Notes: a model not told the origin generated them from the sequence alone. Positions 3,045 through 45,119 are shown, counted from the stretch's first letter. The stretch: DNA of 62,904 nt from Acidobacteriota bacterium (GCA_030278895.1 JARXKK010000004.1:1-62904), one strand, 5' to 3'. Numbers and translations: made by a program.

Positions 3045-3898
3045 CCGGGGCCCTCCTCGGGACGCTGACTCAATGCTGCCGCCACGTTCGAATTCTTCTT
3101 AGAAAGGAATTCGGCGGCCGCCTCGCGCGAAAGTCCCCATTTCGCCGAGACGAGCGCGGTGGGGAGCCGCCAATTACACCTTCTAAGAAAATCTTCGGCT
3201 TTCTCTTCGGACATTCCCGCAAGTTGCGCCACGATCCTCTTTGCCCTCTTCCTCAGTTTTTCGTTCGTTGGCTGCATGGCGACCATTTCGTCCCGGTAGA
3301 CGAGGCCGCGCTTCGCCATGACGGCGGTCGAGAGCATGTTGAGCGCGATCTTCTGCGCGGTGCCGGCCTTCAGGCGGCTGGATTCCGCGAGGACTTCCTT
3401 TCCGGTATCGAGGAGGATGCCGATGTCGGCCAGCCTCTCGAGCGGCCCGTTCGGCCGGCAGACGATGGCGACGGTGAGTGCGCCCGCGCGCTTCGCCTCT
3501 TCCAGCGCGCCCATCACGTAGGGCGTCGCCCCGCTCGCGGCGATGCCGACGACGGCATCCCGTCCCGAGAGCCCTGCGAGGGCGAGGTCGCGGGCGCCCG
3601 CGCCGGCGTCGTCTTCCGCGCCTTCCACGGCCTCGAACATCGCCGCGCGCCCGCCCGCGAGGAGCGCCACGACGAGGGAGGGATCCGTACCGAACGTGGG
3701 CGGAAGCTCCGCGGCGTCCAGCGCGCCGAGGCGGCCGCTCGTTCCTGCCCCTGTGTAGAACCACCGCCCGCCTGCCTCGAGCCTCCCGGCGATCGCGTCG
3801 GCCGCGCGCGCGACCGCGGGAAGAGCGGCCGTGAGCGCGCCTTCGACCGCCTGATCGGCCTCGTGGAGACGCGTGACGAGCTCGAGCGAATCGGTCAT
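3041..3898 (-). CDS. murQ: N-acetylmuramic acid 6-phosphate etherase
   Basis: SIS-domain protein MTDSLELVTRLHEADQ...YTGAGTSGRLG...GIAASGATPYV...ESSRLKAGTAQK. The true ATG is at 3898-3896. The 603-aa track ORF is a run-on. It has ATGA overlaps on both sides. Confidence 0.85.
   Translation of the reverse strand: MTDSLELVTRLHEADQAVEGALTAALPAVARAADAIAGRLEAGGRWFYTGAGTSGRLGALDAAELPPTFGTDPSLVVALLAGGRAAMFEAVEGAEDDAGAGARDLALAGLSGRDAVVGIAASGATPYVMGALEEAKRAGALTVAIVCRPNGPLERLADIGILLDTGKEVLAESSRLKAGTAQKIALNMLSTAVMAKRGLVYRDEMVAMQPTNEKLRKRAKRIVAQLAGMSEEKAEDFLRRCNWRLPTALVSAKWGLSREAAAEFLSKKNSNVAAALSQRPEEGPG
3090..3112 (+). repeat. AT-box copy I
   Basis: GAATTCTTCTTAGAAAGGAATTC in the murQ 3' region (read as EFLSKKNS on the gene strand). 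Confidence 0.7.
3177..3196 (-). repeat. AT-box copy E
   Basis: The plus strand reads CACCTTCTAAGAAAATCTTC. murQ reads it as A-E-D-F-L-R-R-C using GAA GAT TTT CTT AGA AGG TGT. Confidence 0.85.
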
Positions 3899-4836: not shown

Positions 4837-4911
4837 GGGGCCAGCTTAGCAAGGGCTACCAGATTCACCCGCATCAGTTGCGGGGCTCTCCGGGAGGGTT
4901 AGATTGATCCC

Positions 4912-6228: not shown

Positions 6229-6247
6229 GCCGCGCTAACCTCGCGGT

Positions 6248-8107
6248 GTGCGCCGCCGGGGCCTTCCGCTTCTCCTGCTTCTCTGCACCGCCTTCGCCCT
6301 GAAGGCGGCCCTGCTCGCGCATTTCGACGCCCACCCGCTCCTCCAGCCCGCGGGGGACATGGACAGCGGCGTGTACGCCCGGCTGGCCTGGGACGTCGCG
6401 CACGGCGACGTGCTTCTCCGCGGACCGGGACCCGTACCTTATTTCGTCTCGCCGCTCTACATCTACTTCCTCGCCGCGGTCCATGCGCTCTCGGCGGGCT
6501 CGCTCTTCGCGGCGAAGGTCGTCCAGATCGCCCTCGGGACGGCGGCCGTCGGGCTCGTCTTGCTGACGGCGCGACGGCTCTTCGGCGAACGCGCCGCGCT
6601 CCCGGCGGGAATCCTCTTCGCGCTCACGGGTGTCGTGTCGTTCCACGAGATCCTCATTCTTCAGGCGGCTTTGGACCCGTTCCTCACCGCGCTCGCGATG
6701 TTCCTGCTGGCGGATGCGCTCACTCAGGGGAGTATTTCTTCGAAAGTGAATGGGGCGGTGGGCGCCGGGCGCTGGCTCGCCGCGGGTGGGGCGTTTGGTC
6801 TTCTCGCTCTCAACAGGCCCAATGCTCTCTTGTGCGTCGCGGCGGTTGCGGCAGCGCTTCTCCTCTTCACCTTCGAAGAAAATCTTCTCCGAAGGGTTGG
6901 TGTCGCTACGGCATTTCTCGCGGGCGCGGCGCTGACGATCGCGCCGGTCACTCTCCGAAACCTCGCGGTCTCTCACGAGTTCGTCCTGATCTCCTCGCAC
7001 GGCGGCCTGAACTTCCTCGTCGGCAACGGACCCGGCGCGAACGGGGTCTACCGCGCGCTCCCCGGGATCACGCCGGACATCGCCGGGCAGGCAGCCGACA
7101 CGAAGCGCGTCGCCGAGGCGGCCGAAGGGCGCGCGCTGTCCACACGGGAAGTTTCCTCGCACTTCGCGCGACAGGCCTGGGACTGGATCGAGCGAAACCC
7201 GGCGGACGCCACTCGTCTCTTTCTAAGAAAGATTCATCTTCTTCTTTCCGGCGACGAGGCACCTCTCAATTTCAGCTTCCCGTGGTACCGCGAAAAGAGC
7301 CTCGTGCTGCGGCTGCTGTGCGTCGGGCCCGGCCTCCTCGTGCCGCTCGCGGGCGCGGGATTCTTCCTCGCGCTCTTCGCGTCCGCGGGCGCGGCGCGCC
7401 GGACGCTCCTCGTCTGGTCCGTCTTCGTCCCCTCATACGTTTTCGCGGTCGCACTCTTCTTCGTCGCGACGCGCTACCGCCTCCCGCTCCTCGTGGCGCT
7501 CGCGCCGCTTGCCGGCGCCGCGGTCGCGCAGCTTCCGGAAGCCTTGCGGGCGAAAAGCGCCCGCCTCGGGATCGCCGCTGCTGCCGCCGCTGTCCTCGCG
7601 GCGGTCTCGCTCCGGCCGACGGGCCTCTGGGACGGCGCGGAGGACGAGGACATGCACTGGGCGCTCTACCTCGTCGAGAAGGGTGAAGCAGCAGAAGCCG
7701 CCCGCGTCGCCGAGGCCGCGGCGTCACGGCATCCCGATCCGGGGCTGATGTGGTTCCGGATGGGACAGGCATGGGCCGCGGCGAAGCGCATGGACGACGC
7801 GATCGCGGCGCTCGAGCGGGCCCGAGCGCTCGACCCGCATCCTCCCGCGACGGAGCCGGCGCTCGCGGCCGCGCACGAGAGCAGGGGCGTGGACCGGATC
7901 CTCGGGAACGACGCGCTCGCGGCCCTGCCCGACTTCGAGGCCGCCGTCGCGCTCTCGCCCGACGACGCGGGAATGCTCCTGAACCTCGCGGCCGTCCTCG
8001 CGGAGAAGGGCGATCGCGTGCGCGCCCGGGACCTGGCCCGGAAGTCCCTCGCGCTCCGGCCCGGCTACGGGAAGGCCGAGGCGCTGCTCCGGGCTCTCCC
8101 GAAATGA
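6248..8107 (+). CDS. GT39/ArnT-like membrane glycosyltransferase with C-terminal TPR repeats
   Basis: Multi-pass N-terminal domain followed by TPR-like repeats (MWFRMGQAWAAAKRMDDAIAALERARALDP..., LAEKGDRVRARDLARKSLALRPGY). Confidence 0.65.
   Translation: MRRRGLPLLLLLCTAFALKAALLAHFDAHPLLQPAGDMDSGVYARLAWDVAHGDVLLRGPGPVPYFVSPLYIYFLAAVHALSAGSLFAAKVVQIALGTAAVGLVLLTARRLFGERAALPAGILFALTGVVSFHEILILQAALDPFLTALAMFLLADALTQGSISSKVNGAVGAGRWLAAGGAFGLLALNRPNALLCVAAVAAALLLFTFEENLLRRVGVATAFLAGAALTIAPVTLRNLAVSHEFVLISSHGGLNFLVGNGPGANGVYRALPGITPDIAGQAADTKRVAEAAEGRALSTREVSSHFARQAWDWIERNPADATRLFLRKIHLLLSGDEAPLNFSFPWYREKSLVLRLLCVGPGLLVPLAGAGFFLALFASAGAARRTLLVWSVFVPSYVFAVALFFVATRYRLPLLVALAPLAGAAVAQLPEALRAKSARLGIAAAAAAVLAAVSLRPTGLWDGAEDEDMHWALYLVEKGEAAEAARVAEAAASRHPDPGLMWFRMGQAWAAAKRMDDAIAALERARALDPHPPATEPALAAAHESRGVDRILGNDALAALPDFEAAVALSPDDAGMLLNLAAVLAEKGDRVRARDLARKSLALRPGYGKAEALLRALPK
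6734..6755 (+). repeat. AT-box copy K (TTCGAA variant)
   Basis: ATTTCTTCGAAAGTGAATGGGG in the GT39 gene. The codon is TCG where the consensus would give an in-frame TAG. Confidence 0.7.
6863..6890 (-). repeat. AT-box copy J (TTCGAA variant)
   Basis: The plus strand reads CTCTTCACCTTCGAAGAAAATCTTCTCC in the GT39 gene. The codon is GAA where the consensus would give an in-frame TAA. Confidence 0.85.
7217..7244 (-). repeat. AT-box copy H
   Basis: The plus strand reads CTCTTTCTAAGAAAGATTCATCTTCTTC in the GT39 gene (read as LFLRKIHLLL). Confidence 0.7.
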
Positions 8108-8109
8108 AA

Positions 8110-8133
8110 CGGCCCGGCGTTGCCGCCGGGCCG
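8110..8133. terminator. GC-rich hairpin between convergent genes (bidirectional terminator candidate)
   Basis: CGGCCCGGCG-TTGC-CGCCGGGCCG is a perfect 10-bp stem with a 4-nt loop. It lies between the stop at 8107 and the convergent stop at 8159. Confidence 0.6.
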
Positions 8134-8158
8134 CGAGGGAAACCGACGAGGAACGCTC

Positions 8159-11077: not shown

Positions 11078-12517
11078 GTGAACGACTCCACGCGAATCCT
11101 CAACGGGACGTACGAACTGCTGGGCAAGGTGCGCGCGGGCGGCATGGGGGCCGTCTGGAAGGCGCGCCACGTGAAGCTCGGGACGACGTGCGTCGTGAAG
11201 CTGCTTCACGATTCGCTCATCGACGATCCCTCCGCGCAGGAGCGCTTCAAGCGCGAGGCCCAGACCGCGTTGAAAGTGCATCACCCGAACGTCGTGCGCT
11301 TCTTCGACTACGCGATGGAGGCCGACGGCACGGCGGTGCTCGTCATGGAGTACATCCCGGGAGTCGACGTTTCGGAGCTCATGAAGTCCACGGGGCGGCC
11401 GCCGCTGCCCGTGGCGCTCGAGATCGCGCGGCAGACGCTCGCGGCGCTCGGCGCCCTCCACGCGATGGGGATCGTCCATCGCGACGTCTCGCCGGACAAC
11501 CTCATGCTCACGGTCGACAAGGACGGCGCGCTCCTCGTGAAGCTCGTCGACCTCGGCCTCGCGAAGGAGATGGACCAGAAGAGCCTGACCGAGACCGGCA
11601 TGTTCATGGGCAAGCTCAAGTACGGCTCGCCCGAGCAGCTCGGCCCCGGCCGGAAGGCGGGGATCGACCTCAGGAGCGACATATACGGGCTCTCGGTCGT
11701 GCTCTATCAGATCCTGACCGGGACGCCGCCCTTCGAGGCGGACACGCCCGGCGGCTGGGTCTATGCGCACCTGTCCGAATCGCCGCGGCCGTTCGCCGAG
11801 ACCGATCCGCAGGAGCGCATTCCCGGGGACGTCCGCGCCGCCGTGATGCGCGGCCTCGAAAAGGACCGTGCCCTGCGGTTTCAGACCGCGGCGGAATACG
11901 CGAAGGCGCTCGAGCCTGCGCGAAAACGGCTCGGAGCCGCCGGTCTCGCAGAGACGATCGGCACGATCCGCACGCTCCGCGAGGCCCGGCACGCGCGCTC
12001 GCTCGAGAGCGGCCGCTTCGGGTCCCGCGGCCCGGGCGATGCGTCTTCGCATTCGGTGCACGGGACGCCGGGGTCCGCCCGGCGCCGTTGGTGGCGTGTC
12101 GCTGCCGGTGCGGCGGTGGCGGTGGTCCTCGTCTCGGTGCTCCTCCGGTCGCGGCGCGAGGATCCGCGACCGACGCAACCCGCGCCGTCCGGCGTACCCG
12201 GCATGCCCGTCTTGTCCGCGACGGCGGCAGGGGCGCCGGTGCCCGGCGTGGCGAAGGGCGGAATTTCGTTCGTCGCGCTCCCGAACGCCGACATTCGCGT
12301 CTTTGCCGCCGGGACGTCGGGAGAGGTTCCTCTCCCCGGGCGCACGACACCGCTCTACGTCGCGGTGGCGCCGGGTATCTACCGCGTCGAGCTGACGTTC
12401 CCGGGCTCGCGGGCGGCCTCCCGAGACGTGACCGTGGAGGCGGGGCGCTCGATCGCGGTGCACGTCGAGGATCCGAAGTTCGACGTGGAGAAGCTCGTGG
12501 CTGCCTATGTGCCGTAA
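11078..12517 (+). CDS. Ser/Thr protein kinase with a transmembrane segment and a C-terminal PEGA-like domain
   Basis: Hanks motifs are present: GAGGMGAVWKA, VVKLL, HRDVSPDNLM, DLGLAK, SPEQ. A TM helix (WWRVAAGAAVAVVLVSVLL) is followed by a PEGA-like beta domain (IRVFAAG...GIYRVELTFPG). Confidence 0.85.
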   Translation: MNDSTRILNGTYELLGKVRAGGMGAVWKARHVKLGTTCVVKLLHDSLIDDPSAQERFKREAQTALKVHHPNVVRFFDYAMEADGTAVLVMEYIPGVDVSELMKSTGRPPLPVALEIARQTLAALGALHAMGIVHRDVSPDNLMLTVDKDGALLVKLVDLGLAKEMDQKSLTETGMFMGKLKYGSPEQLGPGRKAGIDLRSDIYGLSVVLYQILTGTPPFEADTPGGWVYAHLSESPRPFAETDPQERIPGDVRAAVMRGLEKDRALRFQTAAEYAKALEPARKRLGAAGLAETIGTIRTLREARHARSLESGRFGSRGPGDASSHSVHGTPGSARRRWWRVAAGAAVAVVLVSVLLRSRREDPRPTQPAPSGVPGMPVLSATAAGAPVPGVAKGGISFVALPNADIRVFAAGTSGEVPLPGRTTPLYVAVAPGIYRVELTFPGSRAASRDVTVEAGRSIAVHVEDPKFDVEKLVAAYVP

Positions 12518-19593: not shown

Positions 19594-20314
19594 CGCCAAG
19601 CCCGCGCCGGAGCGCGGCGAGCGCCCCGAGAAGAAGCATCACCTCGCGGGCGGTGGGCTTTCCACGGCGCAGGAACGACTCGATCTCGAAGATGACCTCT
19701 TTCGAGCGGCCCCGGCCCGGGTAACCGGCGGAGGAGAGAACTTCTTTGAAAGAGAGGAGAAGACGCCGGACTTCCTTCGAGCCGGCCATCTGCTCTTCGG
19801 GTTTTGGCGTTCCGCGGCTTCGCCGCGGTGCTTTGAAGGGTGAAAGAGGGGACAGAAAGGCCAGCGCGATCGCGACGGACTGCGCGAGATTGAGCGTCGG
19901 AAAGGCGTCGGCGGTCGCGATGCGGAGGCGGGCGTCGCACGCCCGGAGCTCTTCCGTCGTCAGTCCGCCGCGTTCCGGCCCGAACACGAGGGTGACGCGC
20001 CTTCCGGCGCGAAGAGCACCGGAGATTTCTTTGAAGGTGGTAGACGGCGGCAGTCCTCGCGAGACGCGGCCCCGCATCGCGCTCATGGCCACCAGCGTGT
20101 CGGTTCCGTCGAGAAGGTCGCTCCACGCCGGGAGGACACGCACCTTTCTAAGCAAATCCTCGGCTCCCGATGCGAAGGAGATTGCATCGGGGTGTGCCGG
20201 CTCGGTGCGCGGTCCGAGCAAAGAAATCTCCGCCCCGAAATTCTTCGCGGCGCGCGCCGCCGCCCCGATGTTGCCCGGGTTGTGCGTCCGGACGAGAACG
20301 ATGCGCAGGGCCAT
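19568..20314 (-). CDS. trmJ: tRNA (cytidine/uridine-2'-O)-methyltransferase, SpoU/TrmH class
   Basis: MALRIVLVRTHNPGNIGAAARAAKNFG...LVFGPERGGLTTEEL...LNLAQSVAIALA, collinear with TrmJ. True ATG at 20314-20312. Confidence 0.8.
   Translation of the reverse strand: MALRIVLVRTHNPGNIGAAARAAKNFGAEISLLGPRTEPAHPDAISFASGAEDLLRKVRVLPAWSDLLDGTDTLVAMSAMRGRVSRGLPPSTTFKEISGALRAGRRVTLVFGPERGGLTTEELRACDARLRIATADAFPTLNLAQSVAIALAFLSPLSPFKAPRRSRGTPKPEEQMAGSKEVRRLLLSFKEVLSSAGYPGRGRSKEVIFEIESFLRRGKPTAREVMLLLGALAALRRGLGVSPSKPRP
20141..20161 (-). repeat. AT-box copy N
   Basis: The plus strand reads CACCTTTCTAAGCAAATCCTC. trmJ reads it as E-D-L-L-R-K-V (GAT TTG CTT AGA AAG GTG). Confidence 0.7.
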
Positions 20315-24387: not shown

Positions 24388-25824
24388 ATGCCGGTTCCCG
24401 CCACCGCCTCCGCCCTCGCCGCTGGGGTGCTCACCGGCCGCGTGCCCGATGTCGCGCGCGCGATTTCGTGGGCTGAAAGCGGCGACACCCGTTTTCCAGA
24501 GCTCCTCACGCGCATCTTTCCGCGCACGGGGCGCGCCCGCGTCACCGGGCTCACGGGCTCGCCCGGGGCGGGAAAGTCGACGCTCACGGCGGCCCTCGCG
24601 CGCCGCGCCCGTGCGCGGGGCCGGAGGGTCGGAATCGTCGCGGTCGACCCGTCGTCGCCATTCTCGGGCGGCGCGATCCTCGGCGACCGCATCCGGATGC
24701 AGGACCTCTACACGGACCCCGGCGTCCTCATTCGCTCGATGGCGACCCGCGGGCATCTCGGGGGCCTCGCACGAGCTTCGGCCGACGCCGTGGACGTCCT
24801 CGACGCGGCGGGGTTCGATGAAATTCTCGTCGAGACGGTCGGCGTCGGGCAGGACGAGGTGGAGGTCTTCCGCCTTGCCCAGTCGTGCGTCGTCGTCCTC
24901 ACGCCGGGAATGGGCGACGACATCCAGGCCATCAAGGCGGGTCTCATGGAGGTCGCCGACCTCTTCGTCGTGAACAAGGCGGACCGCGACGGCGCCGACC
25001 GCGTCGTGCAGGAGATCCTGCAGATGCTCGAGCTCGGAGAGCACGGCGCGTGGGTTCCGCCGATCATCAAGACAGTCGCGACGACGGGCGCGGGTCTCGA
25101 CGAGCTGGAGGCAAAGCTCGAAGAGCACCGGGAATTCCTGCTCGGACCCGAGGGCGGGCGGAGAAAGCGCGAGCGGACGAGGATGCGGATCGAGGGGCTC
25201 GTCAGAGAAGATTTTCTTAGAAGGGTAAAGAGCCTCGGGGGTGACCAGGGCGCGCTCGACGAAGCGGCAAGCCGCGTGGAAGCACGCCAGGAGGATCCGC
25301 TGGCCGCCGCCCGCGGCCTGCTCGGCCGTATCGACCACGGCGCCGCCGGAGCGGCCGAATCCCCCCCTTCACCTTCTAAGAAATCTTCGTCTTTTCCGAA
25401 ACCAGAGAATTCTCTTGTCTCTTGCATCTCCCATCTCGGCATCTCCGTCGCGTCCCTCGAAAAGGGCGGAGCCTTTTGGGATCTCCTCGGCCTCGTCGAG
25501 GAGCACCGCGAGGAGGTCGCGTCGCAGCAGGTCATGGCGTCGTTCCGGGCCGTGGGGGAGTCGCACCTCGAGCTCCTCGAATCCACGTCGCCCGACGGCC
25601 CGATCGCGAAGTCGATCGAAAAGCGCGGGCCCGGGGTCCATCACTTGTGTCTCGAGGTGACGGACGTGCGCGCCGCCCTCGCGCGGCTCAAGGCGGCGGG
25701 AGTCCGGCTCGTGAACGAGGAACCGTTCGACGGCGCGCACGATTGCCTCGTCGCGTTCGTCCACCCGTCCGCGACAGGCGGCATCCTCCTCGAATTGTCG
25801 GAGAAGAAGACGAAAGAGGGCTGA
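24388..25824 (+). CDS. meaB: MeaB/ArgK-type G3E GTPase fused to methylmalonyl-CoA epimerase (VOC/glyoxalase fold)
   Basis: The N-terminal ~310 aa carry LTGSPGAGKSTL, AVDPSSPFSGGAILGDRIRM, ETVGVGQDE and NKADRDG. A low-complexity linker (ESPPSPSKKSSSFPKPENS) follows. Then ISHLGISVASLE...GPGVHHLCLEVTDV...AFVHPSATGGILLELSE (MCE). Confidence 0.8.
   Translation: MPVPATASALAAGVLTGRVPDVARAISWAESGDTRFPELLTRIFPRTGRARVTGLTGSPGAGKSTLTAALARRARARGRRVGIVAVDPSSPFSGGAILGDRIRMQDLYTDPGVLIRSMATRGHLGGLARASADAVDVLDAAGFDEILVETVGVGQDEVEVFRLAQSCVVVLTPGMGDDIQAIKAGLMEVADLFVVNKADRDGADRVVQEILQMLELGEHGAWVPPIIKTVATTGAGLDELEAKLEEHREFLLGPEGGRRKRERTRMRIEGLVREDFLRRVKSLGGDQGALDEAASRVEARQEDPLAAARGLLGRIDHGAAGAAESPPSPSKKSSSFPKPENSLVSCISHLGISVASLEKGGAFWDLLGLVEEHREEVASQQVMASFRAVGESHLELLESTSPDGPIAKSIEKRGPGVHHLCLEVTDVRAALARLKAAGVRLVNEEPFDGAHDCLVAFVHPSATGGILLELSEKKTKEG
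25207..25232 (+). repeat. AT-box copy C
   Basis: GAAGATTTTCTTAGAAGGGTAAAGAG in meaB (R-E-D-F-L-R-R-V-K-S). Confidence 0.85.
25366..25397 (-). repeat. AT-box copy F
   Basis: The plus strand reads CCTTCACCTTCTAAGAAATCTTCGTCTTTTCC and forms the MeaB-epimerase linker (SPSKKSSSFP). Confidence 0.85.
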
Positions 25825-26544: not shown

Positions 26545-27030
26545 GGCGTCGGGAGCCTCCAGCGCGGCGTATCAACTCAGAGCGCGACACCCTATCGGGA
26601 GTCGCCGGCAACCGCATGGTTCTTTGCACATATCGCTCAGAAAGACATCGCGATGGCGTTTCTACTCGCTCTCTGTTCGAGAGACGTTCTTCCGTGGAAC
26701 CAGCACTTGTTGCGCGCGGCGCTTGAGCGGCGGGAGAAAGAAGAGATGATCGTCGACTGTGCCAGTCTGAGACACAAAGGCCATTTTGTAGAAGTGTTCG
26801 GCGCCCTCGGCGTCTATGCACCTGCACCGATGCCCCAGGCTCGGTTGGGACGTACGTTCTCCATGGCCGCGGCGACTTCGCCGCCAAAGCCAAGAAAAGG
26901 ATCCCGGAAGGCACTGGAAGAAGCGCCACGCACTGTCGCTCCGCGCCCTCCGAGAAGGAGACCGGCCGATGCGAACGTGAGATGGGCTTCCCTCAGCACA
27001 GCGCGACACGGTATATAAAGGAAAAATGCC

Positions 27031-29412
27031 ATGCGATCACGTCTCCTACTCTGCCTAGTCATCTTTTGTCTTGCTTCTCCGGCTTTCGCTGAAGAATACG
27101 TGACAATCCGAAAAGTAACCGCCTCCCATTATGACGCTCTGAACTCATCCGAACTCGCGGCACTAGAGCAACACGGTATCGTGGTGAGAGAAGATTACGG
27201 GCCCTTCGCCTTGGGCACGAGAGCTACCACAACCGACGTCGCGGCGGCCAGCCGGGCTTCGGGGCTCCTCGTCATCAGCGAGCCTTCTTTCAATAAGCTC
27301 TCGGTTGGTGGCGTCGAGATCGATACCCGACCAGGCGCTCCTTCCGTGCCGGGCATAGCCCCGACACTTCGGCTCGCCGATTATCCGGTTGGCGGGGATG
27401 GGCTCTACCTCATTCAGCTCGCAGGACCTCCACGTCCAGCTTGGCTAAGTGAGCTTTCGTCGGCCGGACTCACTACCCTGCGATATGTGGAAACGAACGG
27501 CTACCTCGTGCGAGCCCCCGCGGGCCTTCGTGCGTTGAAGGAGCGGTTGTCATCGGTTGTAAAATTCATCGCGCCGTACGAACCGTTTGAAAAGCTGTCT
27601 CCTGAACTTCGTTCCGTCACGTCAGGTGAGGTGCAGATTTTGGTTGTGTGGGATTCGACCGAAACTCTCGCGTCGGCAGCTTCCAAGGTCCTCGCCCTCG
27701 ACCCGAGCGCTCGGTTAGTACCATCGAGTCGCGAATCATACGCGGTACTCAAGGCGAACCCCTCTCAGTTTGGAGCCCTCGCGGCCGATGCGCACGTGCT
27801 GTCGATGGAGATCCCTCATGAAGGAGGGCCCTCCGATGAGCGTACCGCGCAGATCGCCATCGGGAACATCAGCGGCGATGGCGCCTCGGGAACCGGATAC
27901 ATGGACGCTCTTGAGACCGCGTGCTCTTCGTGCTTCCACGACATGTCGTCGGAGGTGGTCGATGTCGTCGATTCGGGTCTTTACGCTCATCCCGACCTCA
28001 GTGGCGGAGTCCCGGGCCGTCTGACATACGCAAGCGCCTTCATGGGCGTCACAGGTGGTACCGTCGATCAGTACTTTCACGGCACCTTCGTGACCGGTTT
28101 GATCGCGGGCAATCCATTCCAAGCGAACGGCACCCACAATGCGGGAGACGGCGGTTTCGCCTGGGGGCTCGGCGTCGCGCCCACGGTGCACTTCATGAAC
28201 TCGCGGATCTTCGATAATCAGGGGCACTTTGTACGGGCGCCCACGCCAGCAGACGTCGATACGCTTTCGGCAAATGCGTTCAATCACGTCGCGATGGTAC
28301 AGAACAACAGTTGGAATGTCTGCGACACGACATACACGACACTCAGTCGCGCATACGACATTCATGTCCGCGACGCGCTCAATAGTCCAGCTCAATCCCG
28401 CAACCCTTTGAGTATCGTCTTCTCGAGCGGGAACATGGGTAATTGCGACCCGGCTTCGGCACCCGTGACTGCGCCGGCAAACGCCAAGAACGTCATTACG
28501 GTCGGCGCCTCGTCGTTCATGCGACCGGCACTCGTTGGAAATTGCGATACAACCCACGGTGTAAGGGACGTGTCCGACTTTAGCAGGCGTGGTATTGCTG
28601 CGGCCGCCGGGCGGTTCAAACCGGACCTCGTGGCGGCGTCAACGAGTTCGACATCTGCGGTGTCAAGTCCCTACGTTCCCGCCGGTTGCGGTGGTGCAAA
28701 CTTGATCGATGCGAACTACTACGCCGACAACGGCACGAGCTTCAGCGCACCTCTCGTAACAGGCGCGACGGTCTTGCTAAAAAGGCGGATTGGTGGCACG
28801 CCGTCGCCCGCTTTGACGAAGGCTGTCCTGCTGGGGTCGGCGGCGTCGATGAACGGAGGCGTCGACCAGTTCACATTGAACACGTTGGGGTGGGAGCCGG
28901 CAAGTCCGCAGGGATTTGGCCGACTGAACGTCCAGGCGATCGTGAGCGACGCGACCCCGGCGCGGTATGTGGACGAAGACACTTCTCCCGCGCCGATACG
29001 CCGGTTCACCGCTAGTGGTCAATATTACGAGCAGACTCTTAATATCGCCGACGTAAATCTCCCAGTGATCATTGTTCTCGCGTATTCGGATGCGCCGTCG
29101 ATGGAAAACTCTGTTGGGAACGCTGTCAACATCCTGAACATGGCGGTCTATAATGGCTCGGGTTGGAGCTGGAATGACGGAAATACCGGGTCCCAGTTTG
29201 CGCCCCCGTGCATTGGTGGCCTAACAGAGGGCTGCTATCTGCACGATACGGTCAACAACGTGAAATGGATCAAGATCGCACCAAACTCCGTTTACCCGTC
29301 CTTCACCATACAGGTCGTGGCTTCCTCACTCGCCGCGAAGGCGGTACCCGAACTTGACTCCGGCGCGAGCGTCAACCAGGACTGGGCGATGTATGTCTAC
29401 AATGCGTATTAG
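27031..29412 (+). CDS. secreted subtilisin-like serine protease (peptidase S8)
   Basis: Signal peptide MRSRLLLCLVIFCLASPAFA. Catalytic triad contexts are VVDVVDSGL (Asp), HGTFVTGLIAGN (His) and NGTSFSAPLVTGA (Ser). The gene is clearly AT-richer than its flanks. Confidence 0.85.
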   Translation: MRSRLLLCLVIFCLASPAFAEEYVTIRKVTASHYDALNSSELAALEQHGIVVREDYGPFALGTRATTTDVAAASRASGLLVISEPSFNKLSVGGVEIDTRPGAPSVPGIAPTLRLADYPVGGDGLYLIQLAGPPRPAWLSELSSAGLTTLRYVETNGYLVRAPAGLRALKERLSSVVKFIAPYEPFEKLSPELRSVTSGEVQILVVWDSTETLASAASKVLALDPSARLVPSSRESYAVLKANPSQFGALAADAHVLSMEIPHEGGPSDERTAQIAIGNISGDGASGTGYMDALETACSSCFHDMSSEVVDVVDSGLYAHPDLSGGVPGRLTYASAFMGVTGGTVDQYFHGTFVTGLIAGNPFQANGTHNAGDGGFAWGLGVAPTVHFMNSRIFDNQGHFVRAPTPADVDTLSANAFNHVAMVQNNSWNVCDTTYTTLSRAYDIHVRDALNSPAQSRNPLSIVFSSGNMGNCDPASAPVTAPANAKNVITVGASSFMRPALVGNCDTTHGVRDVSDFSRRGIAAAAGRFKPDLVAASTSSTSAVSSPYVPAGCGGANLIDANYYADNGTSFSAPLVTGATVLLKRRIGGTPSPALTKAVLLGSAASMNGGVDQFTLNTLGWEPASPQGFGRLNVQAIVSDATPARYVDEDTSPAPIRRFTASGQYYEQTLNIADVNLPVIIVLAYSDAPSMENSVGNAVNILNMAVYNGSGWSWNDGNTGSQFAPPCIGGLTEGCYLHDTVNNVKWIKIAPNSVYPSFTIQVVASSLAAKAVPELDSGASVNQDWAMYVYNAY

Positions 29413-30271
29413 CGTCTGCGTGTTCTTTGTTCTCTTTGCGGGAAGGGTTCTCGCTCGAGAAGTTGTCGTCCCCAATGTCGCAGCTCACAGCATCGGAATC
29501 GGCGGGGTGCTGTGGGGAACGGAACTGCGAGTCACGAACCTCACGGGAGCCGCCCACACCCTGACGGTAAAGGACTGGATCGGAACGCCGGGATGGGCGC
29601 CGTCGACGGTGATCGTGCCGCCTTTCGCGACGGTATCGGTCGGCGGATGGAGCGTATTCAACTTCAACCCCAACGTTGATTCGGTAGTCGAGGATCACCC
29701 GGAGCCGGTCTTCGGCGCGGCGGTACTGGACGTTGATGACGGGCTAACCGTTCAATCAGGGATACTTGCTGGCCCGAATCCTCCGATTATTCCGGGCGGT
29801 CCCGGAGGTGGACTCCGTTGCCCGGGATGGCTCGGGGGATACGTCTATCGGCTCAACACGGACGGCAACTGCAACCAGGGGAGCGGCCCGATCGCCGACG
29901 TCGTGGACGGTTTCTTTGCCGCCACTGATCAGGTCGATCTGCTCTGGCTCTCGACGGACGACGCCCGACGGACGAACATCACATTCATCAACCCGGACGT
30001 GACAGGGGCTACGATGTCCGTGCATCTCGTCAGCGCGAACGGCGTCGTGGCGCAGGACGTCAGTGTATTCGTACCTGCGCGCGGAATCGCACAGCTGACT
30101 GATGTGTTTCGGAACTCGGGAGCGCCTATAAAGGCTGCGAACGACACCATGGGGGCGAGCGCAGCGCGCGCCCGCGTCTCGTCGTTAACGCGATTCTTCG
30201 CGTTGGGATACGTCATCAGCAACGGCAACAACACGGTGGGGATCAGCCTGCCTCGCCGTGCGTCGCCGTGA
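29402..30271 (+). CDS. secreted hypothetical protein, partner of the S8 protease
   Basis: MRISVCVFFVLFAGRVLA signal peptide. Overlaps the protease stop by 11 nt. Its N-terminal beta-rich domain resembles that of the 56528-57898 protein. Confidence 0.55.
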   Translation: MRISVCVFFVLFAGRVLAREVVVPNVAAHSIGIGGVLWGTELRVTNLTGAAHTLTVKDWIGTPGWAPSTVIVPPFATVSVGGWSVFNFNPNVDSVVEDHPEPVFGAAVLDVDDGLTVQSGILAGPNPPIIPGGPGGGLRCPGWLGGYVYRLNTDGNCNQGSGPIADVVDGFFAATDQVDLLWLSTDDARRTNITFINPDVTGATMSVHLVSANGVVAQDVSVFVPARGIAQLTDVFRNSGAPIKAANDTMGASAARARVSSLTRFFALGYVISNGNNTVGISLPRRASP

Positions 30272-36749: not shown

Positions 36750-36763
36750 AGAGAAAGAGGGAA

Positions 36764-36790
36764 GAAGATTTTGCTTAGAAAGGGAAGAGG
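36764..36790 (+). repeat. AT-box copy B (long form)
   Basis: GAAGATTTTGCTTAGAAAGGGAAGAGG lies between deoC and the ALDH (or in the ALDH 5' end). A second degenerate tandem copy precedes it (36726-36755). Over about 55 nt it is closely similar to copy A. Confidence 0.8.
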
Positions 36791-38291: not shown

Positions 38292-38306
38292 CCGCGCTCC
38301 CGCCCT

Positions 38307-39725: not shown

Positions 39726-39792
39726 CGAGGTCCTCCGCCCCGACGTTAGGCCTGCCCCTACCGGGTGGCCATGGGCCGTATGAACCAGTGCG

Positions 39793-42495
39793 TCACTTCA
39801 GATGCTCTCCCGTTGCCGGCCAGTTCAGGACCACCACGGCCGGCTGTTCCTGCCGTTCGTCGGCGGTCGCGAGCACCAGAAAACGATTTCCGTCCGGGGC
39901 CGGGATGTACTGGGACCGGTTGTCGGAGATCCCGTTGGCGGGCACGCGGATCGGAAAGAGTGACTTCGGCGCTCCCACCTGCGCGTCTTCGCCCCCCAGG
40001 GACAGCTCGACGGACATGAGCTTGCGGTCGTTCGAGAGGAAATAAAGCTCTTTCCCGTCCGCGCGCCAGAGAGCCTGGTCGCCGCCGTCTTTCGAGATCT
40101 GCCACTTCCCCCCCGAAGGCGGAAACCTCTGCACATAGACCTCCGCGCGGCCCGTCTCGTCCGAGGAGTAAGCGAAGAACTTCCCGTCCGGCGACGAAGA
40201 GGCATGAGCGGCCGCCGCCTGAGGCACGGCCAGGAGAAGCTGAGCCTTCCGTTCGCCCGAGAGCGGAAGCCTCCAGAGCTCGGGGCGGCCGACACTGCTC
40301 ATCGTCTCGAAGACCAGCCACGCCCCGTCCGGGGAAATGAAGTCGCCGTAGTTGTCGAGGGTCGTGGCGAGGAGCGATTCGTCCCCTCCCGTTCCGTCGA
40401 GGGGCCGGCGGAAGAGGCCCATTCGGCTCGCGCGGTTCGATGAGAAATAGAGGTTCTTTCCGTCCGGCGACGCCATCCCGGTGTTGTTGGCCTTGGGCCC
40501 GAACGTGAGCCGCGTCCACGTGCCGCGCGTCAGGTCGACCTGCCAGAGGTCCTGAAGTTCGGTCCGCGGGTCCGCCACGGTGATGCCGAGGCGTTGCCCG
40601 CCCGCGAACCAGAACGGTTCCGACAGGATGGCGGCGTCCCCGACGGTTCCGAGCGGCTTGCCTGAACGGTCGAACCAGGTAAGTTTCTGGCGGGGGTTCG
40701 CACGACGCCTGTAGACGAGGGCGCCGTCGGCCGCCGCAGAGAAGGCCGCAAGGCCCGTCCACCCGCTCTCGCCCTCGACGGCGATTCCGTCGATGACGAG
40801 TCCGGGCTCGCCGGACAATTTGCGCCGTCCCGCGTCGAACGGCTGCGCATAGAGCGCACTCTCGCGGACGTAGAGGAGGCGGCCCGCGTCGTACTCCGCC
40901 TTCCCGCGGGTCGAGACGACGAAGGCGTCGTCTCCCGAGTCGAGAGAAGCCACGCGCGTGCCGAGGCGGGCCGGGTCGTCGCTTAAGCAGAGGTAGAGAA
41001 AATGGTTCCCGTCGGGCAGGATCTTCGGCCAGCGGTGCGTGTAGTCCTTCGGACCGAACTTCGTCACGGGTGCCGGGACCCCGCCCGAGGCGCTCACGCG
41101 ATGGAGCGGCAAGCGGGTTCCGGGCGCGAAGACGATGACGCCCCGGGGGAGCCACGTGCCGCCCCGCCCGTCGGTGATCGGGCAGATCGTCTGGGGCGGG
41201 CCACCAGCCACGCTGATGCGCGCAAGACGGTCGCCCGTGAAGTATGCGATGGCGGTGCCGTCCGGCGACCAGAAGGGAAAACGCGCGCCTTCCGTTCCGG
41301 GCAGGAGCTGGACGGCGACGGAATCGAACGAGCGCACGTAGAGCCGCTCGATGTCCTTCTCGTCGGTTGCGACGAACGCAAGCCGCCGGCCGTCGGGCGA
41401 GAGCGCCACCGAGCTGCCGAACGACGCCCCCTCGGGGACGCGCACCTCGAACTGGACGACGGGCGCGCGCGGGGCGCGAGCGCGCATCGCGAGGGCCCCC
41501 GCCGCGGCCGCGCACGCGGCCGCGATCGCCCAGGGGAGAAAGAGGGAGAGGAGATTCTTGCGACTTACAGTGGGGCTTGGCGACGCGGGATTTTCTTCGA
41601 AAGGCAATGGGCCGGAGGAGCTCGACGAGAGGGCGGCGCTCGATTCTTCCAGCTCGAGCCTTGCATCTGCGATGTCGTGGAGGCGCTGCTTGGCGTCCCG
41701 CACCAGACACCTTCTAAGAATCTTTCTTACGGCGGTGGGCGTTTGCTCCGGCAGCGCCGCCCAGTCCGGCTCGCCCCGGAGAATCGCCGCGAGCGTGTCG
41801 CTGACCGTCTCGCCTTCGAATGCTTTCTTTCCCGTCAGCATCTCGAAGAGGACGCATCCGAACGCCCAGACGTCCGTGCGCTTGTCGACCGGCTTTCCCC
41901 GTGCCTGCTCGGGCGACATGTACGCCGCCGTCCCGAGGATCATTCCCGCCGCGGTGCCCCGAGCCGTCAGCGTCGGCGAATACGAGATCGAGGGGGAGGA
42001 GGCGCCCGCCTCGTTCTCGAAGATCTTCGCGAGGCCGAAGTCGAGGAGCTTCACCCGGCCCTCGTGCGTCACCCTGACGTTCGCGGGCTTGAGGTCGCGG
42101 TGGACGATGCCCTTCTCGTGCGCCGCCTCCAGCGCCTCGGCGATCTGACGGGCCAGGAAGAGGGATTCTTCGAGTGGAAGAGGGCCGGAAGAGATTTTCT
42201 GCGCAAGGTCTTCACCTTCGACCAGCTCCATGACGAGGAGGTGTCTCCCCCCACTTTCTTCGAAGGAATAGATCGCGGCGATTCCGGGATGATTGAGCGC
42301 TGCGAGTAATCGTGCTTCCCTCTCGAATCGCGTTCTTCTCTCTTCCCCTTCGAAGAACTCTTCCGGCAGTACCTTGATCGCGACCTCTCTCGCGAGGCGC
42401 GGGTCTTTCGCCCGATACACCTCTCCCATCCCGCCCGCACCGAGCGCGGAGAGGATTTCGTAAGGTCCGACGCGCGTGCCTGAGGCCAGCGTCAC
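39793..42495 (-). CDS. Ser/Thr protein kinase with TM segment and C-terminal TolB-like (PD40) beta-propeller (K1)
   Basis: GAGGMGEVYRAKD, AIKVL, HRDLKPANV, DFGLAK and SPEQ, then PD40-type repeats (SPDG..LAF...). The GTG start at 42495 overlaps the K2 stop (GTGA). Confidence 0.85.
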   Translation of the reverse strand: MTLASGTRVGPYEILSALGAGGMGEVYRAKDPRLAREVAIKVLPEEFFEGEERRTRFEREARLLAALNHPGIAAIYSFEESGGRHLLVMELVEGEDLAQKISSGPLPLEESLFLARQIAEALEAAHEKGIVHRDLKPANVRVTHEGRVKLLDFGLAKIFENEAGASSPSISYSPTLTARGTAAGMILGTAAYMSPEQARGKPVDKRTDVWAFGCVLFEMLTGKKAFEGETVSDTLAAILRGEPDWAALPEQTPTAVRKILRRCLVRDAKQRLHDIADARLELEESSAALSSSSSGPLPFEENPASPSPTVSRKNLLSLFLPWAIAAACAAAAGALAMRARAPRAPVVQFEVRVPEGASFGSSVALSPDGRRLAFVATDEKDIERLYVRSFDSVAVQLLPGTEGARFPFWSPDGTAIAYFTGDRLARISVAGGPPQTICPITDGRGGTWLPRGVIVFAPGTRLPLHRVSASGGVPAPVTKFGPKDYTHRWPKILPDGNHFLYLCLSDDPARLGTRVASLDSGDDAFVVSTRGKAEYDAGRLLYVRESALYAQPFDAGRRKLSGEPGLVIDGIAVEGESGWTGLAAFSAAADGALVYRRRANPRQKLTWFDRSGKPLGTVGDAAILSEPFWFAGGQRLGITVADPRTELQDLWQVDLTRGTWTRLTFGPKANNTGMASPDGKNLYFSSNRASRMGLFRRPLDGTGGDESLLATTLDNYGDFISPDGAWLVFETMSSVGRPELWRLPLSGERKAQLLLAVPQAAAAHASSSPDGKFFAYSSDETGRAEVYVQRFPPSGGKWQISKDGGDQALWRADGKELYFLSNDRKLMSVELSLGGEDAQVGAPKSLFPIRVPANGISDNRSQYIPAPDGNRFLVLATADERQEQPAVVVLNWPATGEHLK
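41589..41611 (+). repeat. AT-box copy P (TTCGAA variant)
   Basis: GATTTTCTTCGAAAGGCAATGGG in K1 (gene strand reads PLPFEENP). The TTCGAA change avoids an in-frame TAA. Confidence 0.75.
41708..41728 (-). repeat. AT-box copy G
   Basis: The plus strand reads CACCTTCTAAGAATCTTTCTT. K1 reads it as R-K-I-L-R-R-C (AGA AAG ATT CTT AGA AGG TGT). Confidence 0.8.
42163..42184 (+). repeat. AT-box copy O (GC-adapted)
   Basis: GGATTCTTCGAGTGGAAGAGGG in the K1 kinase domain. Two further degenerate copies follow at 42188-42223. Confidence 0.5.
42252..42271 (+). repeat. AT-box copy L1 (TTCGAA variant)
   Basis: CACTTTCTTCGAAGGAATAG in K1 (gene strand reads YSFEES). The change avoids an in-frame TAA. Confidence 0.7.
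42338..42364 (-). repeat. AT-box copy L2
   Basis: The plus strand reads CTCTCTTCCCCTTCGAAGAACTCTTCC in K1 (gene strand reads EEFFEGEER). Confidence 0.7.
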
Positions 42496-45119
42496 CTGAA
42501 TGTGCCCACCCAGATGTCGCTCTCGGTCACGTTTCGGAGGAAGTAGAGGGAGCGTCCGTCGCGCGAGAGCGCAATGCGCTGGACCGTGCCTTCCGCCGCC
42601 GGGAGGACGAGACGCGACTGGCGGGCCGCGAGGTCGAGGACGCGGATGCCGTCGGGCGTCGTCAGGACGGCACGTCGCCCGTCCGGCGCAAACCTGGCGA
42701 CGTACGCACGGACGCCGAGTCCTTCGCATGCATTTTTCGAGGGCGTGCAGAGGCGCGCCTCGAGGGCCAGCTCGCCTCCGGGACCCGCGGCGAGAAGGCG
42801 CGCGCCGTCGAACGACCAGCTCCAGGCCCAGCGCGACTCGAGATCGGCGACCGGAGCGCTCACCGAGAGAGAGCCGCCGGTACCCGTGACGAGCGGAAAC
42901 ACCGCCACGCGCGCGTCGAACGAGGCCGCGGCGAAGAAACGCCCGTCCGGGGAAAGAGCGGGGTAGAGGTAGAACATGGACTTCGGCGGCGTGAGCCGAG
43001 AGAGGCCGCTGCCGTCGACCGCGATCGAGTAGCCGCCGTAGTCCCCGTCCCGGTTCGAGTAGAAGGCGAGACGCTTGCCGTCCGCCGTGAAGGCTGGCCC
43101 GCGGTTTCGGAACTCGTCGTGGGTGAGCCGGCGGAGCTTCTGGCCATCCGTGGAGACGAGGCAGAGGTCCTCGAGTCGTCCCACCGTGCGCGTCGCGAGC
43201 GTGGTTCCGTCAGGTGAGATCTCGAGGTCCTCGAAGGCGGTGGAGCTTCGCCTGAGGACGACCGGCGGCCCGATGGGATTGAGCGTGCCGGGATCGAGCG
43301 CGAGCTTCTCGATCGTCATGAGTTCGGCGGGAGAGGTGAAGGCGATCCGCTTCCCGTTCCGCGACCCGCGGAACGAGCCGGGGAAGGTCCCGGCCCACGT
43401 GATCGGCACCGTCACGGGCTCGGGCGCGCCCCGCGTGGCGCCCGTAGCCTCGTCTATAGGGACGCGCCAGAGATTGAAACTTCCGCCGCGGTCGCTCCCG
43501 AAGTAGAGGAACGCCCCGTCGGCGGACCAGAACGGGCTGAAGTCCACCGCGGTGTCGTTCGTCACCGGGACGGGCTTCTCGCCCTCCTTGAGGCCCGCGA
43601 GCGGCACCGTCCAGATGTCGCGCTGCGCCGTATCGCCGACGAGGCCCCAGAACGCGACGCGCTTCCCGTGCGGGGAAACGGCGGGCTCGACCGCGTCCGG
43701 GCCATAAAGCATCCGCTTCTTCCCGGTTGCGACCTCGACGGCCCAGATCTTCGCGCGCGTGCCGCGCGCGAGCGGTGACAGCGCAGCCTCCTCCGCGTAG
43801 ACGATCTCCTTGCCGTCGGGCGTGAAGTCGGGGCCGTAGCCCGTGTCCGTCACGCGGCGCACGGACTCGCCGAGCGGGCCCATGACGAAGATGCCGCCGC
43901 CGTCCTTGCCCGAACGGAACGCGATGAGCGAGCCGTCCGGCGAGTAGACGGGGTCGAACCGGTCGTCCTCCGGGGAATCCGCCGAGAGGTCGATGGGCTT
44001 GTCGCTGCCGACGCGCTGGACGATGACGTGCCGGCGCCCCGAGACGGCCTTCATGTAGGCGACGGTCTCGCCGTCGGGCGAGAGAGCCGGCGACCGCTCG
44101 ATGCCGGGATCCGACGAGAGCCGCTCGAAGAGCAGGGTCGGCGGCGGCGCGGACGTGCGGCCGTGCCGCCCCGCGAAGAATCCTGCGACGAGGAGCGCGG
44201 TTGCGGCCGCGGCCAGGAGCGCGCGCCGCTTCACGAGGCGCGAGGGTGCGACGCCCGGCGCGACGGCGGCGCGCGCGGCGGAGTCCGCCGAGAGGCTCTC
44301 GAGCGCGAATGCGAGGTCGCCCGCGGACTGGAAGCGCTGCTCGGGGCTCTTCTCGAGGCAGCGGCGCACGATGCGCTCGAGGCCGGGCGGGACGCTCTGG
44401 TTCGTGACGGAGAGGTCGGCGGGTTCCTCGCGGAGGATCGCCGTGATGACGTCCGCGCTGGAATCTCCCCCGAATGCCTTCTTCCCCGAGAGCATCTCGT
44501 AAAGGACGGCGCCGAACGCGAAGAGGTCGCTGCGTTGGTCGGCGGGCCGGCCCCGCACCTGCTCGGGGGCCATGTAACCCATCGTCCCGAGGACCATGCC
44601 CGGCTCCGTGCCGCGCGCCGCGGTCGGCAGGTTCGAGCCGGAGCTCGCGGCCGAATCTTCCGTGAGCTTCGCGAGACCGAAGTCGAGGATCTTGATGCGC
44701 CCGTCCTTCGTGACGAAGAGGTTTTCGGGCTTCAGGTCGCGGTGCACGATGCCCTTTTCGTGAGCGGCCGAGAGTCCGCGCGCGATCTGGATCGACCAGT
44801 CGACCGCCTTGCGGAGCGGGAGCTTCCCTGCGGCGATCGCCTGACGCAGCGTCTCGCCCTCGAGCAGCTCCATGACGAGGATGTGACGGGCCGCGGAGGA
44901 GGAAGGCAAAGAGGGGATTTCTTCGAAGGAATAGATGGCGGCAATTCCCGGATGATTGAGGCTCGCAAGGAGGCGAGCTTCCCTCTCGAACCGCTGCCTT
45001 CTCTCTTCACCTTCAAAGAATTCTTCCGGCAGTACCTTGATCGCGACCTCTCTCGCGAGGCGCGGGTCTTTCGCCCGGTAGACCTCTCCCATCCCGCCCG
45101 CGCCGAGGGCAGAGATCAC
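42492..45119 (-). CDS. Ser/Thr protein kinase with TM segment and C-terminal TolB-like beta-propeller (K2)
   Basis: Same architecture as K1. The conserved N-terminus LAIATGTRLGPYEV continues in frame up to 45158, where only a CTG aligns with the K1 GTG start. 45119 is the first canonical start. Confidence 0.8.
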   Translation of the reverse strand: MISALGAGGMGEVYRAKDPRLAREVAIKVLPEEFFEGEERRQRFEREARLLASLNHPGIAAIYSFEEIPSLPSSSAARHILVMELLEGETLRQAIAAGKLPLRKAVDWSIQIARGLSAAHEKGIVHRDLKPENLFVTKDGRIKILDFGLAKLTEDSAASSGSNLPTAARGTEPGMVLGTMGYMAPEQVRGRPADQRSDLFAFGAVLYEMLSGKKAFGGDSSADVITAILREEPADLSVTNQSVPPGLERIVRRCLEKSPEQRFQSAGDLAFALESLSADSAARAAVAPGVAPSRLVKRRALLAAAATALLVAGFFAGRHGRTSAPPPTLLFERLSSDPGIERSPALSPDGETVAYMKAVSGRRHVIVQRVGSDKPIDLSADSPEDDRFDPVYSPDGSLIAFRSGKDGGGIFVMGPLGESVRRVTDTGYGPDFTPDGKEIVYAEEAALSPLARGTRAKIWAVEVATGKKRMLYGPDAVEPAVSPHGKRVAFWGLVGDTAQRDIWTVPLAGLKEGEKPVPVTNDTAVDFSPFWSADGAFLYFGSDRGGSFNLWRVPIDEATGATRGAPEPVTVPITWAGTFPGSFRGSRNGKRIAFTSPAELMTIEKLALDPGTLNPIGPPVVLRRSSTAFEDLEISPDGTTLATRTVGRLEDLCLVSTDGQKLRRLTHDEFRNRGPAFTADGKRLAFYSNRDGDYGGYSIAVDGSGLSRLTPPKSMFYLYPALSPDGRFFAAASFDARVAVFPLVTGTGGSLSVSAPVADLESRWAWSWSFDGARLLAAGPGGELALEARLCTPSKNACEGLGVRAYVARFAPDGRRAVLTTPDGIRVLDLAARQSRLVLPAAEGTVQRIALSRDGRSLYFLRNVTESDIWVGTFR
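44916..44934 (+). repeat. AT-box copy M1 (TTCGAA variant)
   Basis: GATTTCTTCGAAGGAATAG in K2 (gene strand reads YSFEEI). The change avoids an in-frame TAA. Confidence 0.7.
45001..45027 (-). repeat. AT-box copy M2
   Basis: The plus strand reads CTCTCTTCACCTTCAAAGAATTCTTCC in K2 (gene strand reads EEFFEGEER). Confidence 0.7.

Follow-up and report, generated by a model that had tools for sequence, protein, structure and literature searches.

AT-box pairs in a Thermoanaerobaculia genome segment are copies of a class-wide convergent two-armed element, tentatively read as a transcript hairpin

Introduction

Why should short AT-rich sequences stand as inverted pairs inside the genes of a GC-rich genome? 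The question is raised by a 62,904-nucleotide stretch of DNA from an Acidobacteriota bacterium (GCA_030278895.1, JARXKK010000004.1:1-62904), hereafter the window, by which the whole of this stretch is meant. Copies of a motif called here the AT-box face each other in pairs within murQ, meaB, kinase genes and other genes, while the GC content of the window is 65-70% and that of the third codon positions of the genome about 88%. An original prediction, made from the sequence, read these pairs chiefly as intragenic invertons whose interiors are flipped by a recombinase and named long-range stems as an alternative. The analysis described here shows that the pairs of the window belong to a bipartite cis-element that occurs across the class Thermoanaerobaculia. 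We infer that the intragenic copies are overlays on codons by substitution, neither insertions nor DNA switches.

Pairing and anatomy of the element

The six inverted pairs of the original prediction were all recovered at their positions, the purine-strand copy always standing to the left of the pyrimidine-strand copy (Table 1). Measured between the centres of the 9-bp palindromic core TTCT(T)AGAA, the core-to-core spacings are 85 bp in murQ, 136 bp in GT39, 160 bp in meaB, 119 bp in K1a, 93 bp in K1b and 93 bp in K2. The murQ, meaB and K1a values agree with the 85, 160 and 119 bp given before; for GT39, K1b and K2 the earlier values were 133, 90 and 90 bp. Because one kinase segment, present in paralogous copies, accounts for both the K1b and the K2 pair, the six pairs represent five independent loci. 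A SpoU methylase gene contains a seventh pair, which is weaker. With four edits and a variable T-run allowed, the window contains 18 boxes, about one per 3.5 kb, arranged as seven convergent pairs and four solos; 14 of the boxes are intragenic, and all seven pairs fall within called genes. The core TTCTTAGAA or TTCTTCGAA occurs 14 times and the exact 18-mer GAAGATTTTCTTAGAAGG three times. Five matches to the 18-mer with at most three mismatches were found, against 0.01 expected from dinucleotide shuffles. Random placement of 18 boxes predicts 0.20 convergent pairs within 170 bp, and seven or more such pairs arose in 0 of 200,000 simulations.

The element is not peculiar to the window. The exact 18-mer was found in at least 112 stretches (one genome per species), and among the matches listed nearly all come from about 30 metagenome-assembled genomes (MAGs) of Thermoanaerobaculia/Acidobacteriota, obtained in independent studies, with a few chance matches in low-GC genomes. 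The window is syntenic with several of the box-bearing MAGs at about 80-82% nucleotide identity, and its DNA therefore derives from a member of the class Thermoanaerobaculia. Pairing statistics were collected from 105 related high-GC loci totalling 855 kb, with genomes sampled as 8-kb slices. A core-based detector identified 109 convergent pairs at 35-400 bp in this set but only 4 divergent ones. Adjacent boxes within 400 bp are convergent in 85 cases, tandem in 17 and divergent in 4. When a partner was called as a core match with at most two mismatches within 400 nt, 89 of 115 good boxes (77%) had one on the inner side and 4 of 115 (3.5%) on the outer side. Divergent boxes are hardly ever seen, inside genes as elsewhere, although they too would form an inverted repeat. 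Spacing, centre to centre, has its mode at 74-80 bp and ranges from 36 to 296 bp, and the 855-kb pair set shows no helical periodicity of about 10.5 bp.

Alignment of 107 instances describes the arm as a purine-rich block of about 25-45 nt around the box. A polypurine tract of 20-30 nt (GAAGAG-like) is followed by the 18-mer, by (T/G)GAAGAGGGG and then by GC-rich sequence, the consensus of the box being GAAGATTTTCTT(A/C)GAAGG. Genic and non-genic copies alike are rich in purines to either side of the box. Paired arms face each other with their AAGG ends inward and enclose 20-280 nt of arbitrary, usually GC-rich sequence. But for one mismatch, the 18-mer GAAGATTTTCTTAGAAG forms a mirror repeat of 17 nt, and the 9-bp palindrome TTCTTAGAA is also part of it; the full arm can be described as a purine-rich block broken by TTTTCTT, and a triplex-type DNA structure at the arms is a possibility. 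Since the 18-mer is nearly a mirror repeat, motif counts in reversed sequence are not a valid control, and dinucleotide shuffles together with inner-side and outer-side partner counts were used in their place.

Interiors are unrelated between non-orthologous loci and cluster only as orthologues, paralogues or overlapping neighbours, which indicates that the pairs are not copies of a mobile unit. Solo boxes look like decayed pairs. The box at 243 is solo in the window and in locus L020, whereas the orthologous site of locus L060 (3649-3753) is a full pair with a spacing of 82-87; the window has lost the right arm and most of the interior. Of 46 dereplicated clusters of non-genic units (for example, L059 7375-7449 and L015 2864-2941), 27 have a spacing of 2 mod 3, with 10 and 9 in the other classes, a preference that is absent from intragenic pairs.

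Two readings of the non-genic units were considered and ruled out. Small open reading frames (ORFs) are contradicted by stops in the through-frame and by interiors without codon-position GC bias, and a three-frame stop signal by the preferred spacing class, which leaves one frame open. No association of units with tRNA or rRNA was found, an Rfam scan of the window and six loci at the gathering threshold gave no match, and searches of the literature for the motif sequence, or for Thermoanaerobaculia together with inverted repeats, found nothing relevant.

Overlay on codons and position relative to genes

The original prediction also held that the interiors are native coding sequence and not insertions of miniature inverted-repeat transposable elements (MITEs), and this is borne out by protein alignments. 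MurQ 4-276 aligns to 26-298 of 4s12 with zero gaps, the C-terminus of MeaB aligns gap-free with 3md0, and the K1b and K2 interiors correspond to kinase subdomains II-IV. Similarly, the pair in HisA (L033, spacing 76) spans a conserved barrel segment with a difference of only three residues from a solved homologue. A possible exception is HisD (L090 7774-7873), in which a canonical unit near the N-terminus lies within about 46 residues that are extra relative to solved homologues. This unit, the only such case seen, may be an in-frame insertion instead of an overlay.

Where the box lies in coding sequence, it is translated in several frames and both orientations, giving EDFLRR, PSKK, FFEG, SFEE and ISSK. 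Moreover, its central A is replaced exactly where TAG or TAA would arise, as in five of six TTCTTCGAA copies and in the T variant of K2, TTCTTTGAA. The use of several frames and orientations, together with these stop-avoiding variants, identifies the motif as a nucleotide-level feature written in rare codons. Intragenic pairs are present even in conserved genes of core metabolism, among them pheT, hisA, hisD, mnmA and hemD.

Genes in the loci were called with a codon-usage ORF picker, so that "intragenic" is approximate, although ten calls were confirmed by Pfam. Both arms lie inside one called gene in 42 of 85 pairs, and 27 pairs are fully intergenic, which at 90% coding density amounts to an approximately nine-fold intergenic enrichment per base. 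Intergenic units lie 5-30 nt past a stop codon, some overlap the stop, and several genes terminate at TAG or TGA within the left arm; the intragenic pairs first described in the window are not at termini. The number of units per gap is 8/47 for convergent, 26/253 for tandem and 5/96 for divergent gaps. The arm adjoining the upstream stop is the better preserved or the sole survivor in 27 cases, against 12 for the opposite. Canonical terminators consisting of a hairpin and a T-run are not above chance in the window (15 against 12.1 expected). An ordinary terminator candidate without AT-boxes, a strong GC hairpin of 11 pairs with a T-rich tail, is found at 8109-8134 between the convergent GT39 and outer-membrane-protein genes.

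Orthologous pairs persist in six species for meaB, four for hisA, three for murQ and two for spoU. The left arm of the meaB pair recurs as an exact copy at the same position in L003, L072, L082, L113 and L114, loci that were retrieved via this motif. Judged from such sequence comparisons, the element is maintained, with turnover.

A proposed hairpin-type transcript element

The best explanation of these observations, which we put forward tentatively and at less than even odds, is that the element forms a hairpin in the transcript, with a conserved sequence and with arms that a putative factor reads. Its closest counterparts would be the Tuberculosis Rho-independent terminator (TRIT) of Mycobacterium, a palindromic, bidirectional and lineage-restricted motif of 147 copies that overlaps stop codons (Gardner et al., 2011, PMC3152330), and the repetitive extragenic palindromic (REP) sequences and bacterial interspersed mosaic elements (BIMEs), together with REPINs and the RAYT transposases associated with them (Bertels and Rainey, 2011, PMC3116915). 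The element would act in single-stranded nucleic acid, most probably the transcript, where AU-rich arms with few other partners in RNA of 68% GC would pair together and close the interior as a hairpin. On either strand, such a hairpin would have a 5' arm rich in purines and a 3' arm made of pyrimidines and poor in G. Directly 3' of stop codons, its preferred position, it would serve in both directions as a 3'-end, terminator or stabiliser hairpin, a role also proposed for TRIT and REP/BIME. The intragenic copies, including all six pairs first described in the window, would be the same element put onto permissive codons by substitution, and inside frames they might function as conditional terminators or processing sites that are exposed when ribosomes are absent.

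Structure predictions are consistent with this proposal. Canonical units give long predicted hairpins on both strands, and the predicted RNA ensemble pairs box with box in five of the seven window pairs, with mean probabilities of 0.56-0.71. The unphased spacing of 36-296 bp fits a hairpin loop better than a rigid protein bridge, and the preferential preservation of the stop-proximal arm also speaks for a stem. The long-range stems that were originally offered as an alternative are viable and are preferred here, but covariation between partners is absent.

That absence is one of several points that weigh against a hairpin in the transcript. The complementarity of true partner arms does not exceed that of shuffled partners. 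The variable central base forms 20 C-T and 12 A-G combinations and only one compensated C-G among the 33 pairs in which this base has a C or G variant, and orthologue sets contain few compensatory changes. Base pairs kept up by compensatory substitution, by which conserved structured RNA is recognised, were not found. On the sense strand, G-U mismatches exceed A-C mismatches only weakly (116 against 86), and the interiors show no excess of structure over shuffled sequence (z about -0.5). The right arm, CCUUCUAAGAAAAUCUUC with a pyrimidine tract, is G-poor and not a U-tract. Intragenic pairs are spread evenly along genes without a 3' bias, and translating ribosomes would melt hairpins there. 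Conservation is also modest. A first estimate for third codon positions, 95% in boxes and 62% in flanks, is inflated because the loci were retrieved via the exact motif. In an ascertainment-free subset that excludes all motif-anchor sites, boxes and flanks are 84% and 81% conserved overall and 75% and 67% at third positions; this subset is biased in the opposite direction, so that the true value lies between the two estimates.

Because the arms follow the global consensus without compensation by the partner, a sequence-specific reader is required whether or not the arms pair. In the hairpin proposal, a factor that reads the arms is implied by their invariant sequence and the lack of compensatory change, and base pairing alone would be insufficient; for TRIT, too, an RNA-duplex-binding factor is suspected by its authors (PMC3152330). 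A broader possibility, on which we place slightly less weight, is that Thermoanaerobaculia have a dedicated system that recognises the arms by their sequence, in RNA or in DNA, and imposes a strictly polar two-armed site every few kilobases; a regulon under a master recombinase would be a very improbable sub-case. Codons would then have been rewritten to rare AT-rich ones even in core-metabolism genes, and the element would be a new kind of genome-wide punctuation.

TRIT and the AT-box are alike in several respects. Both motifs are restricted to one lineage, a high-GC one with few canonical terminators, and both are palindromic and hence bidirectional, conserved in sequence and structure, and, in the case of the AT-box for its non-genic units, tied to gene ends, where they overlap the last codons. 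In contrast, TRIT is described at gene termini, while about half of the AT-box pairs, including all six of the original pairs, lie well inside frames. The AT-box also conserves only its two arms, with an arbitrary interior of 36-296 bp centre to centre, and a role of its units in termination is suggested by analogy.

Alternative explanations and known systems

The reading favoured by the original prediction would make the pairs a regulon of hundreds of micro-invertons, in which a master site-specific recombinase reads the arms and flips the interior, thereby recoding or truncating the host protein. Conserved inverted repeats around unrelated interiors are the architecture of an invertase regulon, and in intragenic invertons short inverted repeats flank tens to hundreds of base pairs whose flipping recodes the gene or adds a stop. 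Those documented in Bacteroides are as short as 57 bp with 11-nt repeats (Chanin et al., PMC10028968), so that size alone is no argument against inversion. The earlier hand translation of the flipped murQ segment was reproduced exactly and its frame remains open, as do those of GT39 and K2, whereas the flipped meaB, K1a and K1b frames contain stops (three of six open). However, when 42 intragenic pairs were flipped at their core centres, the frame was open in only 15 (36%), compared to 55% of random segments of the same length. In addition, the orientation of the interior relative to its flanks is identical in 41 of 41 orthologous comparisons across species, intergenic units included, and a metagenome scan for native or flipped meaB junctions matched two orthologues, both in the native orientation. 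Half of the units are short (about 100 bp), symmetric, promoter-less and situated past stop codons, where a flip changes nothing. Pairs in core-metabolism genes also speak against a switch, as does the strict inward polarity, which inversion does not need. As stated in the original prediction, no recombinase was seen: a Pfam scan of the called genes of the window found no recombinase, integrase or transposase domain, with about ten ORFs lacking any Pfam match. The AT-box pairs, then, differ from intragenic invertons in having one orientation only in the assemblies compared, one consensus across about 30 species, an abundance of symmetric units past stop codons and no invertase domain in the window. 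On the evidence of assemblies rather than reads, in which inversion at low frequency may go unnoticed, the inverton reading is unsupported, not disproved, and we regard it as very improbable. Even less credence is given to decayed miniature mobile elements (MITE, REPIN or RPE-like), in which the arms would be old terminal inverted repeats around diverged interiors. The doublets with a preferred spacing and the solo remnants do resemble REPINs and singlets (PMC3116915), the box at 243 is solo in the window and paired in L060, and the HisD unit of L090 lies in a region with about 46 extra residues. With REP sequences and REPINs the AT-box further shares its over-representation, predicted hairpins in single-stranded DNA or mRNA, singlets that look like decayed doublets, and 3' extragenic positions. 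Nevertheless, MurQ, MeaB and HisA show no insertion at the pairs, there are neither target-site duplications nor sharp ends, and between species the units keep their syntenic places at about 80% identity. A REP is a palindrome in its own right and hardly ever lies in a gene, with 14 of 1,067 overlapping one (PMC3116915), while the AT-box is weakly palindromic, with its 9-bp core, and overlays codons without insertion. REPIN copies share a spacer and are replicated as units, while AT-box interiors differ from locus to locus. The ORFs examined in the 8-kb genome slices, and the intervals between long-range convergent boxes, contained no transposase, and there was no RAYT among the examined ORFs of the slices.

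A serious rival, more plausible than inversion or mobility though at well below even odds, is a bipartite site at the level of DNA, with a protein on each duplex arm (nucleoid-associated, domesticated transposase-like or topoisomerase-positioning) and a symmetric complex. It is proposed that such a site is needed at some density along the chromosome and settles in permissive sequence. This proposal best explains why the arms match a global consensus without partner-specific compensation and why intragenic pairs are evenly spread along genes. It also accommodates the identical arm anatomy inside and outside genes and the five units in divergent intergenic regions; the 3' intergenic enrichment and the depletion at divergent promoters could reflect tolerance, not function. 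On the other hand, a spacing of 36-296 bp without 10.5-bp phasing is awkward for a defined protein bridge or wrap, arms of 45-50 nt whose outer part need only be purine-rich are unusual as protein sites, and a candidate protein is lacking. A purely symmetric site would furthermore be indifferent to the direction of transcription, whereas the stop-proximal arm is preferentially preserved (27 against 12). An uptake-signal-like or other drive motif, comparable to the DNA uptake sequence (DUS) of Neisseria, the uptake signal sequence (USS) of Pasteurellaceae or HIP1, seems improbable by comparison. DNA carrying it would be favoured in uptake, recombination or repair, so that the motif would build up over the genome, codons included, and its inverted pairs would double as terminators, as those of the DUS do. 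Like the DUS and USS, the AT-box is lineage-specific, over-represented on both strands at kilobase density and present in coding and non-coding sequence. Its superposition on codons in several frames, its many degenerate and solo copies with modest conservation, as in a balance of drive and decay, and the absence of any AT-box from the lower-GC part of the window at 26-30 kb would also suit a drive. A single DUS is sufficient, however, and DUS pairs are at most 21 nt apart, whereas AT-box pairing is nearly obligate and strictly polar, at about 76 bp, also inside genes. In DUS and USS the single motif is the unit and pairing is incidental, but 77% of AT-boxes have a convergent partner, at a preferred spacing of 74-80 bp, compared to 3.5% on the outer side. 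The arm, at 25-45 nt, is also much longer than known uptake signals. HIP1 (GCGATCGC) of cyanobacteria is likewise superimposed on coding sequence. HIP1 is a hyper-abundant, lineage-wide motif without a settled function (PMC5861425). It is an 8-bp perfect palindrome that is linked to methyltransferases and acts as single sites, while AT-box arms are long, asymmetric and set in spaced convergent pairs. The obligate convergent geometry and the mod-3 spacing are unmatched by REP, TRIT, DUS/USS, HIP1 or invertons. A remainder of the probability is assigned to none of the explanations considered.

Boxes and neighbouring features of the window

The boxes of the window are listed in Table 1. Of its four Ser/Thr kinase genes (11078-12517, 39793-42495, 42492-45119 and 48563-50089), only the tandem paralogues K1 and K2, which combine a kinase with PD40 repeats, contain AT-box pairs. 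The arms in K1 and K2 coincide with the EEF..E and SFEE segments of the family, encoded by rare codons. At 24388-25824, a single reading frame joins the MeaB GTPase to a methylmalonyl-CoA epimerase (Glyoxalase_4). The orthologous loci L003 and L072 contain the same unbroken fusion, and the right AT-box arm codes for part of the linker. In the metagenome meaB orthologue L113 (790-900), two tandem right-type boxes lie in this linker, so the number of arms is variable at one locus.

Table 1. AT-boxes of the window, with window coordinates and strand
Feature	Coordinates	Strand	Remarks
murQ pair, left arm	3089..3106	+	degenerate, core TTCTTAGAAAGG; 3' arm in minus-strand mRNA; encodes ..EFLSKKN..
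murQ pair, right arm	3179..3196	-	exact 18-mer; encodes ..EDFLRR..
GT39 (PMT_2) pair, left arm	6729..6746	+	C variant TTCTTCGAA, in the frame where the A variant gives TAG
GT39 pair, right arm	6870..6887	-	1 mismatch; C/G variant, in the frame where TAA would arise
Solo box inside GT39	7219..7236	-	no left partner within 300 nt at up to 3 core mismatches
SpoU-methylase pair (weak), left arm	20021..20037	+	
SpoU-methylase pair, right arm	20144..20161	-	3 mismatches
meaB pair, left arm	25207..25224	+	exact 18-mer; encodes EDFLRR
meaB pair, right arm	25372..25388	-	T-run one base shorter; encodes PSKK; linker between MeaB and methylmalonyl-CoA epimerase domains
K1a pair, left arm	41586..41603	+	C variant
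K1a pair, right arm	41710..41726	-	encodes kinase subdomain XI segment ..KILRRCL..
K1b pair, left arm	42249..42266	+	C variant; encodes ..SFEE..
K1b pair, right arm	42347..42363	-	encodes ..EEFFEGEE..
K2 pair, left arm	44912..44929	+	paralogue of the K1b left arm
K2 pair, right arm	45010..45026	-	variant TTCTTTGAA
Solo exact box, intergenic	243..260	+	polypurine tract upstream
Solo box with polypurine tract	36764..36782	+	15 nt past the stop codon of a DeoC-family gene
Solo box	56501..56518	+	fills the 29-nt gap between convergent DNA-ligase and PKD-domain genes

Two segments of the window stand apart from its surroundings. About 700 bp at 1433-2127, with a PIN-domain (VapC-like) gene at 1429-1851 on the minus strand, are absent from the otherwise collinear loci L020 and L060 and are probably a toxin-antitoxin module that was gained or lost between species. 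The stretch at 25877-30271 has a lower GC content (0.60-0.62) and contains a second PIN gene (26113-26544) with a small upstream ORF, as well as an S8 subtilase ORF (27031-29412) that was rejected by the codon-usage model. This box-free stretch may be acquired DNA.

Conclusions

The element has practical consequences for work on these genomes. In metagenome binning, the 18-mer serves as a sharp marker of contigs from Thermoanaerobaculia, and the element is a ready false positive for inverton finders that are based on inverted repeats. If the account given here is true, genomes throughout a class of Acidobacteriota each contain hundreds of copies, as extrapolated from about one box per 3.5 kb in the window, of an element able to impose runs of rare AT-rich codons (TTT CTT AGA AGG) on conserved enzymes. 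After mycobacterial TRIT, it would also provide a second, independent example of hairpins with a conserved sequence that stand at gene ends in a lineage of high GC content where canonical terminators are few. Such an element would point to a trans-acting factor and would raise the question of what role a hairpin has inside reading frames.

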